Shown piece after piece: positions 46,731 through 48,139 of a stretch of DNA of 64,000 bases (the stretch's first letter is position 1; each line of letters starts with the position of its first letter). Below the pieces are notes generated by a model, which saw only the letters and a program-made list of their open reading frames with translations, was not told where the DNA came from and made no database searches. The translations under genes and the position numbers were made by a program. The DNA is from Escherichia phage P1: the sequence record AF234173.1; one strand, 5' to 3'.

Positions 46731-46751
46731 AAACGCCCTTTAATGGGCGTT
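46731..46751 (-). terminator. Terminator of the sim operon
   Basis: AAACGCCC-tttaat-GGGCGTT followed on the - strand by a U-rich tract. Confidence 0.55.
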
Positions 46752-46785
46752 GTGTTAAAACTTAAATTGACTATCCTTTCAAACA

Positions 46786-47580
46786 CTATTTTAATTCTAT
46801 GTAGTTTTTAAATTCTCCCTCATATTTATACATGATGCTATCAAATCCTTCCATTACATCAACGAATTGTTGTGAACATTCCGGCTTCCAAGGCGTACAC
46901 TTACGAACCATATCCATTTTATTCTTATCCTTCGTTGTATCGACTAAGGATAGGTACCCTATAAAATTCATCATCTGAACAGGATCTTGATTTGTGAATA
47001 TATATTTGACGTTTTGCTTAGTAGGTGAAAAAGAATCAAAAGCAGGGAACATATATTCACCAGAAAAAGAGAGTGCAGCATCAATGACGTCTGTTGCTGG
47101 AGTGCAGTTGCTCAGAATTGGCACTAAGCTAAAATTAGCACCGGAGCACACTGCATATATATCATCCCCTTTTTTTAGTTTTAACAGAGAGTCTTGCTTT
47201 GAATCCAATATTTTCAATTTGATATAATTTAGTGGCGTTGCATTTTCCCCTGGAGTAAATAATTCTACAATTGGTTTATTATTCACCATTCTTATGGATT
47301 TTATTTCACCATACACAATTGGAATTGTGTTCCATTTTTCCTGAGCAGCAAATTCATTATCTTTAAAATCATTAACCAACTCAGATGGCAAATGATAACC
47401 AAATTGATTGTTCATTGCTTTCGAAGCAAATCCAGACAAATAGAATGCCCTTACTAAATCATAATCTTTCTTTGAGGTAGAAAGCCAATCTGGCAATTTA
47501 TTATCAGCTATCGCGCTTCCAGCAAAAATAGCACAACAAAATGTTATTACATTAAATAATTTCATTTTCCATTCACTCAT
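46786..47580 (-). CDS. simC: SimC superimmunity protein precursor (secreted)
   Basis: AT-rich ORF with N-terminal signal peptide (MKLFNVITFCCAIFAGSAIA); start ATG 47580 overlaps the simB stop (alternatives 47598 GTG, 47565 ATG). Confidence 0.65.
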   Translation of the reverse strand: MSEWKMKLFNVITFCCAIFAGSAIADNKLPDWLSTSKKDYDLVRAFYLSGFASKAMNNQFGYHLPSELVNDFKDNEFAAQEKWNTIPIVYGEIKSIRMVNNKPIVELFTPGENATPLNYIKLKILDSKQDSLLKLKKGDDIYAVCSGANFSLVPILSNCTPATDVIDAALSFSGEYMFPAFDSFSPTKQNVKYIFTNQDPVQMMNFIGYLSLVDTTKDKNKMDMVRKCTPWKPECSQQFVDVMEGFDSIMYKYEGEFKNYIELK

Positions 47581-47908
47581 TAATCGGTTTAAACTCACTA
47601 ATTAATTCACCAAGACTATTTGGGTATGCTTTATAAATAACATACTCCGAAGAGCCATCTGAATATTGGTAAACCCCATAACAGACCAGTTTATTTATTC
47701 CTTTCTGAATAGTTTTTTGATTATAAGAATCAACCACTGTTATTCCATATGACGATAATATTTCGTTATATTCTTCAATAAGAGCTTTTCTTGTTTCCAC
47801 TGAATTGCAATCTACCTTCGAAAAGTCAACTTCATCAGCAAAAACATTAAATGTTAAAAAGGAAAGCACTAAAAACAAACGAATCAGCATAAATCCACTC
47901 CTACGCAT
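47573..47908 (-). CDS. simB: SimB, small secreted protein
   Basis: 111-aa AT-rich ORF with signal peptide (MLIRLFLVLSFLTFNVFA). Confidence 0.55.
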   Translation of the reverse strand: MRRSGFMLIRLFLVLSFLTFNVFADEVDFSKVDCNSVETRKALIEEYNEILSSYGITVVDSYNQKTIQKGINKLVCYGVYQYSDGSSEYVIYKAYPNSLGELISEFKPINE

Positions 47909-47911
47909 GGA

Positions 47912-48043
47912 TTAATAGTCATTGATCGCAAAGGCGTAAACGTGCCCAAGGTATTTCGTATAATCGGTACAAATCTCCTTTACGCTTGATGCTGCATTAA
48001 CAGTCCCAGCCATAAATAATAACGGTAGTAATAGTTTTCTCAT
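47912..48043 (-). CDS. Small 43-aa signal-peptide ORF not in the ORF track (possibly simA)
   Basis: Hand translation: MRKLLLPLLFMAGTVNAASSVKEICTDYTKYLGHVYAFAINDY; GAGGT 4 nt upstream; stop 4 nt before the simB start. Confidence 0.4.
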   Translation of the reverse strand: MRKLLLPLLFMAGTVNAASSVKEICTDYTKYLGHVYAFAINDY

Positions 48044-48139
48044 TATAACCTCACCTGCCTTATAACTCATTTAGGGTACATATTTTCGCCTTTAAAAAAA
48101 AGAGGTTATTAGATCCAACTGTGTATTTATTAAACAAAT

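Follow-up and report, generated by a model that had tools for sequence, protein, structure and literature searches.

simA of the bacteriophage P1 sim locus as a probable remnant of a longer gene upstream of simB and simC

Directly upstream of simB in bacteriophage P1 lies a 43-codon reading frame for what looks like a small exported peptide, which raises the question of whether superinfection exclusion by sim involves three secreted proteins, as an earlier note on this DNA proposed, or a pair preceded by something else. The sim literature is said to run from Devlin in 1982 through Kliem and Dreiseikelmann in 1989 and Maillou and Dreiseikelmann in 1990 to Lobocka in 2004, and the 1990 title reportedly describes the Sim protein as processed. 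The DNA analysed here (the window, 64,000 nucleotides of Escherichia phage P1, AF234173.1) is identical in its sim region to AF234172/NC_005856 (100% over 1701 nt, with equal coordinates), where simC, simB and simA are annotated between pmgC and c4. PMC8546580 and PMC2409434 cite Kliem and Dreiseikelmann (1989) and Maillou and Dreiseikelmann (1990) for sim as the locus of P1 superinfection exclusion, and the phenotype conveyed by the titles and by the citing papers is exclusion of superinfecting P1 after adsorption. The locus is the long-known superinfection-exclusion (superimmunity) system of P1, whose position, function and three ORFs have stood in the literature or in GenBank for decades; the DNA and the ORFs are the same as in the published locus, and both the exclusion function and a processed Sim have already been published.

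The small ORF, which the earlier note took for a previously missed gene, is simA itself. A CRISPRi screen (PMC10695390) gives it under the name P1_gp043, and in that screen simA, simB and simC were all non-essential for plaque formation. GenBank has annotated it since 2004, and its absence from an ORF list does not make it unknown; the RefSeq PGAP annotation of the identical plasmid sequence does lack it. Where the present analysis departs from GenBank is in what simA is taken to be: an accessory gene there, a fragment of a longer gene here. The features of the locus are collected in Table 1.

Table 1. Coordinates of the sim locus and its signals in the P1 window (-, minus strand)
Feature	Positions	Strand	Remarks
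AT-rich variable slot of P1-like phage-plasmids	46629..48139	(.)	late promoter LPsit/pmgC to C1 operator Oc4
Intrinsic terminator hairpin	46732..46751	-	AACGCCC-ATTAAA-GGGCGTT, then TTATTGTTTT; 7-bp stem, 5 GC pairs
simC (Sim), likely form	46786..47565	-	259 aa, likely start MKLFNV...; 20-aa signal peptide, AIA before DNK
simC, GenBank	46786-47580	-	264 aa
simB, likely form	47573..47890	-	105 aa, likely start MLIRLF...; 18-aa signal peptide, 2 conserved Cys
simB, GenBank	47573-47908	-	111 aa
simB Shine-Dalgarno (SD) sequence	47902-47898	-	AGGAG, 7 nt before ATG 47890
Decayed tail of SimA-domain homology, codons 36-47	47903..47938	-	26/36 nt identity to full-length allele
simA', probable 5' remnant of a SimA-domain gene	47912..48043	-	43 codons + TAA; signal peptide + 26 mature residues
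simA, GenBank	47912-48070	-	52 aa from upstream ATG; 'putative superimmunity accessory function', listed since 2004
SD-like sequence of simA'	48055-48048	-	GGTGAGGT, 4 nt before ATG 48043
PsimA, predicted sigma-70 promoter	48108..48134	-	GenBank annotation only

The slot occupied by sim has been described as variable and low in GC (PMC9603915; PMC6906374), and the AT-rich island of the earlier note is borne out: GC content is 0.31-0.39 from 46550 to 48350 and 0.46-0.51 on either side, with the island also put at 0.31-0.35 against ~0.47-0.51. So is its terminator: a scan of the sim region returned a single intrinsic-terminator-like hairpin, on the minus strand and followed by a T-tract, which lies 35 nt past the simC stop and closes the sim transcription unit; an equivalent hairpin is found downstream of simC in the P1-like element L028. 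At the other end, PsimA was not recovered by our own promoter consensus scan. It is ~95% identical to the promoter region of the full-length simA gene in phage vB_EcoM-Ro157c2YLVW (Ro157c2), and is present upstream of full-length simA in L028. No direct or inverted repeats of the kind expected for a transposon-like insertion flank the slot, and Rfam gave no match inside sim (C4 and its targets fall outside). The slot proteins had zero matches to PADLOC models and no model in NCBIfam.

All three sim products have signal peptides of the n/h/c type with AXA-like cleavage sites, as the earlier note had read them. A simple feature script (positive n-region, h-region of ~10 residues, small residues at -3/-1, no lipobox) assigned Sec/SPase I signal peptides to SimA (MRK, LLLPLLFMAG and VNA, followed by AS), SimB (MLIR, LFLVLSFLTF and VFA, with cleavage before DEV) and SimC (MK, VITFCCAIFA and AIA, followed by DN), and inspection found no L-[AS]-[GA]-C lipobox in any of them. 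The conserved Cys pairs among the products fit with a periplasmic location.

The GenBank starts of all three genes are probably too far upstream, a point relevant to cloning or deleting sim in P1 vectors and phagemids. For simA the true start is likely 48043 (M10 of the GenBank form) rather than 48070, since the conserved start of its family and the SD align there and the upstream ATG is absent from distant members; Ro157c2 and L028 keep the SD itself, and the elements L024 and L025 have SD-like purine runs in its place. The start proposed in the earlier note has better support than that of GenBank, and an SD-like sequence does precede it. For simB the start is likely 47890 rather than 47908: the phrog_14329 profile begins at residue 7 of the GenBank form, PGAP calls a protein of 105 aa, SimB of L028 begins with the corresponding Met, preceded by GGAGG, and the GenBank ATG sits in sequence derived from codon Met46 of a SimA-domain gene. 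The simC start is likely 47565 and not 47580, a length of 259 aa being given both for ORF2 of M34382 and by PGAP, and codon W4 of the GenBank extension being a stop in L009 and L019; at this length SimC does not deserve the 'small' of the earlier description. The simA stop is 3 nt from the annotated simB ATG (the earlier note had 4 nt) and 21 nt from the likely one, and simB and simC are separated by 7 nt.

The ORF at 47912-48043 is real, its product reading MRKLLLPLLFMAGTVNA up to the predicted cleavage site and ASS after it, and its homology extends past its own stop codon. The match of SimA to the profile phrog_3933 (E 6.7e-24) covers residues 10-50 and profile positions 1-41 out of 213, and places the ORF above chance; the 215-aa protein of Ro157c2 (AWN06566) matches the whole profile (E 1e-136). 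P1 SimA carries the N-terminal hallmarks of the family, a signal peptide and the ICTDYxKYLGH motif, and lacks the full SimA domain (~165 aa, with C104, P108-D109 and I112-P113-S114-W115, in proteins of 179-246 aa in total). At the DNA level P1 and Ro157c2 are identical at 105 of 105 positions over codons 1-35 and at 26 of 36 over codons 36-47, with random agreement beyond, which places the recombination junction at ~47903. The decayed tail between codons 36 and 47 contains both the simA' stop and the GenBank simB ATG; the stop (TAA, 47914-47912) aligns to the family's Glu44 codon, and in tblastn residues 1-48 of full-length SimA align across it.

P1 thus shares with the SimA-domain genes the promoter region, the SD, the signal peptide, the first 35 codons and the slot beside Oc4/c4, while retaining 43 of 179-246 codons, the conserved core, including invariant C104 and the IPSW motif, being gone. 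As far as sequence comparison goes, simA' is the cut-off front of a gene for a 179-246-aa exported protein and not a dedicated third component. Its peptide is probably still translated and exported, and the mature part of 26 residues has most likely no independent function and would be dispensable. A family search returned 28 proteins, many of 179-246 aa, from P1-like contigs of ~90-97 kb in Escherichia, Salmonella and Klebsiella, and SimA-family genes occupy the same slot, from ant/icd to pmgC/tub/sit, in other P1-like plasmids. A PTP-like phytase assignment for the full-length SimA-domain protein (26.6 bits, under the 27-bit cut-off) was judged not meaningful.

We therefore favour, with a probability of roughly two in three, a reading of sim as a simB-simC exclusion module plus a simA' remnant, situated in a recombination hot spot. 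Sim would be a low-GC cassette placed in this hot spot between LPsit/pmgC and Oc4, where recombination or deletion would have fused the promoter, ribosome-binding site and first ~45 codons of a SimA-domain gene to simB at ~47903. The TAA now at the Glu44 position would end the ORF early as simA', and the stump would supply the promoter and the 5' end of the sim transcript. The working pair would be simB-simC, both products being Sec-exported with conserved Cys pairs and SimB presumably partnering SimC. SimC, the processed Sim of the 1990 paper, would work in the periplasm, halting P1 DNA on its way in once the phage has adsorbed, through a molecular target and a mode of blocking that we infer.

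The arrangements in other P1-like elements bear on which genes belong together. P1 has simA'-simB-simC, and L027 and L034 have the near-full-length simA179 followed by simB (59% identical) and simC (39% identical). In L028 the order is a gene for a 107-aa TM protein, simB, simC, a terminator, simA215 in intact form and a yfjT-like gene; nothing of simA precedes simB-simC there. The conserved module is simB-simC, preceded by a cut-off simA, a full-length simA or, in this one contig, none. Full-length simA and a yfjT-like gene without simBC occur in Ro157c2, L024, L025 and L032, and the cassettes of exported proteins in the sim slot differ between elements. Of the three-gene exported exclusion system put forward in the earlier note, the P1 sim locus and the exported character of its products remain, whereas the 43-aa ORF is a fragment and not a constant part. 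Against the remnant reading, the long simA directly before simB-simC in the divergent arrangement of L027 and L034 could mean a real functional link between the SimA family and SimBC.

Variation among P1-type copies of simA' suggests that constraint on the peptide is relaxed. G33 and H34 are invariant among 27 full-length SimA-domain proteins; in simA' they read W33/Q34 in 8 of 19 copies and G33/Q34 in 1 of 19, so that about half of the copies (9/19) differ at family-invariant positions, a Gly to Trp change included, and 1 further copy is frameshifted. Such replacements count against the view, expressed in the earlier note and in GenBank's annotation, that SimA (43 or 52 aa) serves a three-component exclusion system of the periplasm as a true accessory subunit, small and secreted, as do the occurrence of simB-simC in L028 with no simA fragment before it and a homology that runs past the simA' stop, as expected of a broken gene. 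Moreover, simA' amounts to the first fifth of the ~165-aa conserved domain, and Cys104, the partner of invariant Cys25, is lost together with the later invariant motifs. A subunit would account for the strong SD and signal peptide, the short distance from the simA stop to simB, the ORF being intact in 18 of the 19 copies, and the SimA-family gene directly before simB-simC in L027 and L034; the first, third and fourth of these also count against regarding simA' as a stump only, and a function of the peptide is possible. The copies are 97-100% identical in nucleotides, however, so that an intact ORF is expected either way, and the 3 synonymous and 4 non-synonymous changes among them are too few to decide. 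We consider an accessory subunit unlikely, and simA is to be read as a gene remnant rather than assumed to be an accessory factor.

It is similarly improbable that the act of translating simA' matters rather than its peptide, whether as a leader ORF that counters Rho-dependent polarity or as a means of delivering ribosomes to simB by coupling or re-initiation. The layout would suit such a role, with the simA' stop 21 nt before the simB ATG and AGGAG between them, simB and simC likewise closely spaced, and the SD of simA' conserved. Yet simB has a good SD of its own with a 7-nt spacer, simB of L028 is expressed from a different upstream context, and the RNA folding predicted around the junction does not exceed that of shuffled sequences in stability (z = 0.27), giving no sign of an occluded simB start. 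A regulatory RNA at the simA-simB junction was considered separately and rejected on the same folding result. That the small ORF, which is short, is not called by PGAP and has no translation data in the literature searched, arose by chance in AT-rich DNA and is not translated is very improbable, since its homology to the expressed 5' end of a conserved family (phrog_3933; 105/105 nt, with the shared promoter region and SD) makes its initiation signals those of a real gene.

SimC has a central domain of PF12869 (tRNA_anti-like) type at residues ~59-156, with a probable OB-fold, and a C-terminal helical domain with a Cys pair in CTPWKPEC. SimC alone scores 19.0 bits against PF12869 (E 1.1e-3, residues 67-159 of the 264-aa form), below the Pfam gathering threshold of 23.5 bits; its phmmer relatives P0012, P0014 and P0015 score 53.8, 25.9 and 43.7 bits. 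Aligned by hhalign with a PF12869 set including Sie2009, the SimC family gives a probability of 98.5% (E 2.1e-15 over 94 columns), a profile-level homology to bona fide PF12869 members. No PDB relative of SimC was found by sequence. AlphaFold models of SimC are of low confidence (pLDDT 32 from the single sequence; mean pLDDT 55 from an 8-sequence alignment, with the OB region mostly <50), and fold searches were accordingly taken as supporting evidence only. They include a match, resting on such a low-confidence model, to KPN03535 (PDB 3f1z), a putative OB-fold lipoprotein of Klebsiella pneumoniae (PMC2954213), whereas SimC has no lipobox.

Sie2009 of Lactococcus phage Tuc2009, a membrane-associated blocker of DNA injection that scores 43 bits for PF12869, above the cut-off, and is a bona fide member of that OB-fold family, resembles SimC in being prophage-encoded, extracytoplasmic or membrane-associated, and able to stop infection after adsorption. 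Compared with Sie2009 alone, the SimC family gives a probability of 79.6% (E 1.5e-5), and both proteins match phrog_13333 and have the motif N-D-[FY]-x-x-N-x-x-A-A-x-x-K-[WY] in common; phrog_8545, the profile of Sie2009-like superinfection exclusion proteins, is matched by Sie2009 (1.7e-79) and by the distant SimC relative P0014 (5.7e-7), SimC itself having no match to it at E<=1. The OB domain is the only common part: SimC has a cleavable signal peptide and Sie2009 an uncleaved N-terminal membrane anchor, and SimC, unlike Sie2009, has an extra N-terminal helix, a C-terminal domain of ~100 aa, Cys pairs and the partner gene simB, the hosts and the excluded phages being unrelated. In the literature searched we found no paper linking Sim or Sie2009 to the PF12869 fold. 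Sim shares its phenotype class with P22 SieA, HK97 gp15, TP-J34 Ltp and T4 Imm/Sp, prophage-encoded envelope proteins that block DNA entry (10.1101/2023.08.15.553423); their folds are different, they are either lipoproteins or located in the inner membrane, and no sequence relationship of the sim proteins to them was detected.

SimC and Sie2009 may be homologous extracytoplasmic PF12869 OB-fold proteins that block phage genome entry alike across phyla. One way would be to bind, in the periplasm or on the surface of the membrane, either the DNA end as it emerges or the tape-measure/ejection proteins once ejected. The slot between pmgC and c4 may be a swap site, filled by simBC, by a SimA-domain gene with a YfjT-like gene, or by upf50.5/upf50.0, the TraT-like lipoprotein pair of P7. 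The three linked readings held jointly, with SimC and Sie2009 in one OB-fold class, the slot a site where exclusion cassettes are swapped and simA' a scar of one such swap, make a tentative proposal, the odds leaning somewhat against it. As a discovery the analysis of sim as a whole adds little, its value lying mainly in the corrections to simA and to the GenBank start codons. If SimC belongs, as an exported OB-fold protein, to Sie2009's Pfam family, the mechanism of Sim, a question dating from 1989, comes within easier reach; DNA ends and the Sit tape measure, which has an SLT domain, would then be candidate binding partners, and Gram-negative and Gram-positive hosts would share an exclusion logic.

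A Rosetta-stone fusion of SimB and SimC was considered for orf79 of phage D6 and rejected: one domain of the protein resembles SimB, whereas the C-terminal one shows no relation to SimC. Homologs of SimC itself number 4 proteins by word-based search and 15 representatives by exhaustive search, indicating that the family is very narrow.

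The interval 46600-48300 matches the Escherichia phage P1 records AF234172.1 and NC_005856.1 with 100% identity at unchanged coordinates (megablast against phage records), so the window represents P1 nucleotides 1-64000. The sim locus described in the earlier note is already known: it has a name, P1 is a model phage, and each of the three ORFs is annotated in the reference record. Its 43-codon ORF (simA'), implied to be unannotated, is GenBank simA and differs solely in the choice of start codon. The ORF itself is present (ATG 48043, 43 codons, TAA at 47914-47912; product MRKLLLPLLFMAGTVNAASSVKEICTDYTKYLGHVYAFAINDY), with a Shine-Dalgarno-like sequence, GGTGAGGT, at 48055-48048, 4 nt 5' of the ATG; the annotated simB ATG follows the stop after 3 nt, not the 4 nt proposed. 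Short ORFs are indeed easily missed: on a plasmid of identical sequence, RefSeq PGAP annotates simC and simB but has no gene where simA lies, and simA is likewise missing from a recent P1 re-sequencing record, in which simC and simB are the only sim genes listed. The additions made here, namely the probable remnant nature of simA, three corrected starts, a modular slot between pmgC/LPsit and Oc4/c4, and a PF12869 link between Sim and Sie2009, are useful refinements that hold no great surprise for a specialist. The PF12869 link was not found in the literature searched, and one SimC copy has already been labelled 'OB-fold putative lipoprotein' by automated annotation.

All three products carry the expected signal peptides, each with a charged n-region, a 10-residue hydrophobic core and an AXA-type site (predicted cleavage by a simple feature script at VNA/AS in SimA, VFA/DE in SimB and AIA/DN in SimC), and none of the three has a lipobox; the description of all three as small does not fit SimC. 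The AT-rich island is evident (GC 0.31-0.39 over 46550-48350 versus 0.46-0.51 in the flanks), as is the terminator, the scan returning one terminator-like hairpin in the region (46751-46732, minus strand) followed by a T-tract. Rfam places C4 and its a1/b1 targets at 48217-48422, independently of the GenBank annotation, and gives zero matches inside sim. A sub-threshold match to the isrK Hfq-binding sRNA (48230-48311, plus strand; 35 bits, gathering score 50; E = 2.4e-5) falls in the c4 leader, where it overlaps the a1/b1 target element. Genome-wide CRISPRi screening scored simA (P1_gp043), simB and simC each as non-essential for plaque formation (PMC10695390).

Features of the sim locus and of related P1-like elements (L numbers, comparison contigs or loci; gene orders read from Oc4 towards pmgC; numbers in parentheses after simA, residues)
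Feature	Coordinates	Strand	Annotation or gene order	Source
simC	46786-47580	minus	'superimmunity'	GenBank
simB	47573-47908	minus	'putative superimmunity accessory function'	GenBank
simA	47912-48070	minus	52 aa, 'putative superimmunity accessory function'	GenBank
Left flank of sim			pmgC and late promoter LPsit	GenBank
Right flank of sim			C1 operator Oc4, c4 promoters, C4 RNA, icd, ant	GenBank
Slot, P1			simA'(43) - simB - simC - terminator	
Slot, Ro157c2, L024, L025, L032			full-length simA - yfjT-like gene	
Slot, L027, L034			simA(179) - simB-like (59% id) - simC-like (39% id)	
Slot, L028			107-aa membrane-protein gene - simB - simC (84% id) - terminator - own promoter - intact simA(215) - yfjT-like gene	
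Slot, P7			upf50.5 - upf50.0	
YfjT-family gene, L002	1965-2441			
YfjT-family gene, L024	3954-4232			
YfjT-family gene, L032	3646-4140			

SimA residues 10-50 correspond to positions 1-41 of the 213-position profile phrog_3933 (E = 6.7e-24, PHROG profile search), the family of exported SimA-domain proteins. The full-length family is wide: among 28 relatives returned by a search, many are 179-246 aa long, a number of these bearing the name 'simA domain protein' at source, and their contigs of ~90-97 kb belong to Escherichia, Salmonella and Klebsiella; in four contigs the gene occupies the same slot as in P1, with icd/ant running divergently and pmgC, tub and an SLT-domain tape-measure gene downstream of it. 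In the P1-like phage vB_EcoM-Ro157c2YLVW (Ro157c2) the pmgC-c4 slot holds a 158-aa gene and a 215-aa gene, and the product of the latter (N-terminus MRKLLLPLLFMAGTVNAASSVKEICTDYTKYLGHVY...) spans the entire phrog_3933 profile (E = 1e-136). P1 and Ro157c2 DNA are ~95% identical in the upstream promoter region and match at 105/105 nt in codons 1-35 (47939-48043), at 26/36 nt in codons 36-47 (47938-47903) and at 5/18 nt, a random level, past codon 47. Residues 1-48 of the full-length protein align straight through the P1 stop (tblastn), and all full-length alleles examined have Glu (GAA or GAG) at the position of the P1 TAA. Conservation across the family over ~165 residues (invariant C25, G33, H34, C104, an IPSW motif and others), set against truncated P1-type copies that are nearly clonal (97-100% nucleotide identity), argues that the long form is ancestral and the P1 form a stump.

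The sharp identity step at 47938/47939 could stem from a segment acquired from a more distant allele, or from recombination among P1-like plasmids that homogenised the shared 5' region. The stop of simA (47912-47914) and the GenBank start of simB (47906-47908) share one frame with TAA TCC between them, and minus the stop the stump frame would run directly into the SimB precursor; a sense codon in place of the stop was seen in none of 19 loci. A published motif search placed candidate ArgR boxes within simC, at 47270, and precisely on the simA/simB junction, at 47906 (PMC2409434). Two stretches of 19 nt, 47708-47726 inside simB and 48030-48048 over the start region of simA', form a direct repeat with 89% identity, probably by chance in such AT-rich DNA.

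The annotated starts of all three genes appear to need revision. A Shine-Dalgarno (SD)-like purine run lies 6-10 nt 5' of the conserved M-[KR]-K start in all SimA-domain members compared, the distant members L024 and L025 are without a counterpart of the upstream GenBank ATG, and no SD precedes that ATG at 48070, evidence by which 48043, the start chosen in the earlier note, is better supported than that of GenBank. The GenBank simB ATG (47908) falls inside leftover SimA-domain sequence, where it corresponds to family Met46, and the phrog_14329 profile starts at SimB residue 7. An 89% identical simB in L028 begins at the equivalent Met with GGAGG 5' of the start, P1 simB has AGGAG (47902-47898) followed by 7 nt and ATG 47890, and PGAP SimB is 105 aa long. 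SimC is a 259-aa protein starting at 47565 both in the original 1990 record (M34382) and in PGAP, and 2 of 19 related loci carry a stop at codon 4 of the GenBank extension. For simB and simC the evidence favours 47890 (105 aa) and 47565 (259 aa) over the GenBank/RefSeq starts at 47908 and 47580, which appear to lie too far 5'.

The simB and simC genes co-occur in 3/3 independent contexts, full-length simA is found both with and without them, and the L028 pair needs no simA' upstream, at odds with the proposed three-gene system. On this gene-order evidence the conserved module is simB-simC, and simA is a separate neighbour gene clipped in the P1 lineage. SimC is encoded by 141 PLSDB plasmids (138 near full length) and SimA-family sequence by 267, 84 of these spanning 80% or more of the 215-aa form; about half of an evenly spaced sample of the SimA-family matches listed cover residues 1-48 only. 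The P1-type simA'-simB junction occurs in 127 of 5426 complete E. coli genomes, and the simA 5' part only in a further 124.

Whether the stump still functions was assessed in 19 P1-type copies (P1 and 18 IMG/VR loci). Of these, 18 keep an uninterrupted ORF; the other copy has a 1-nt deletion in an A-run that may be a sequencing error, and the 3 synonymous and 4 non-synonymous differences are too few for a selection test. G33 and H34 are invariant in 27/27 full-length proteins at identities down to 45%, and truncated copies have W33/Q34 in 8 cases and G33/Q34 in 1; replacement of an invariant Gly by Trp speaks for release of the mature portion of the stump from the functional constraint of the family. 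The stump also retains Cys25 without Cys104, two residues that, both being invariant, may form a disulfide in the full-length protein. Since its signals are inherited intact, the stump would be translated and exported and would give the sim transcript its promoter and 5' end, the peptide itself being functionless (probability about 0.65). A role as an accessory peptide is unlikely for an ORF altered at an invariant family site, widely intact though it is. It is about equally improbable that simA' is a leader ORF, as RNA folding at the simA'-simB junction is no better than that of shuffled sequence (z = 0.27) and gives no sign of a coupling hairpin.

According to papers citing the original work (Kliem and Dreiseikelmann, 1989; Maillou and Dreiseikelmann, 1990; cited in PMC8546580, PMC2409434), sim causes superinfection exclusion, and the Sim protein undergoes processing and is thought to keep superinfecting DNA from injection into the cytoplasm. 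A search of 1.84 billion proteins yielded just 15 SimC-family representatives at E<=1e-3, a tiny family. Three distant relatives (P0012, P0014, P0015) exceed the Pfam threshold for PF12869, a tRNA_anti-like OB fold; SimC itself scores 19 bits, below the 23.5-bit cut-off, and a profile of SimC proper matches a bona fide PF12869 profile over SimC 59-156 (98.5% probability, E = 2e-15). A Cys pair flanking the last strands of this domain is conserved in members with SimC-like N-terminal signal sequences, and with a second pair in the C-terminal domain fits a periplasmic location.

P0014 matches phrog_8545 ('superinfection exclusion Sie-like'), which includes Tuc2009 orf2 (Sie2009), carrying the same annotation and a clear PF12869 member (43 bits). 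Sie2009 is membrane-associated and prevents DNA injection (PMC7693887), by a mechanism reported as unknown (10.1101/2023.08.15.553423). SimC and Sie2009 have a phrog_13333 match in common, and direct alignment of the SimC family with Sie2009 gives 79.6% probability (E = 1.5e-5) over an N-D-[FY]-x-x-N-x-x-A-A-x-x-K-[WY] motif; unlike Sie2009, SimC loses its signal peptide by cleavage, has additional domains at both termini, is encoded with a partner gene and carries the domain-flanking Cys pair. By analogy, SimC may act like Sie2009, its OB-fold domain hindering genome entry from outside the cytoplasmic membrane. Membership of SimC in the Sie2009 family was rejected because a direct phrog_8545 test failed and the architecture differs. 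Mature SimB has 87 residues with two conserved Cys, and as simB always adjoins simC, this linkage suggests that SimB is the partner of SimC. In the 298-aa orf79 of phage D6 (L030 2848-3744) the N-terminal part is a SimB-like domain (52% identity) and the C-terminal domain is unrelated; orf79 lies at a different genome position, adjoining mat.

Published work already describes the slot as a variable hot spot of low GC in P1-like plasmids (PMC9603915, PMC6906374). In phage P7 (L003) it contains a lipoprotein with a sub-threshold TraT-like match (upf50.5, 2696-3217; 23 bits, cut-off 31) and an exported DUF5384 protein (upf50.0, 2153-2692), so the slot tends to carry envelope proteins, which are possible exclusion factors. 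A YfjT-family signal-peptide protein (PF27224 in precomputed hits; phrog_3429) is usually encoded 3' of the full-length SimA-domain gene, a pair that looks like an alternative cassette to simB-simC. In L034, an Enterobacteriaceae P1-like contig, an IS605-family OrfB/TnpB gene (1108-2238) sits between icd and the simA(179)-simB-simC cassette.
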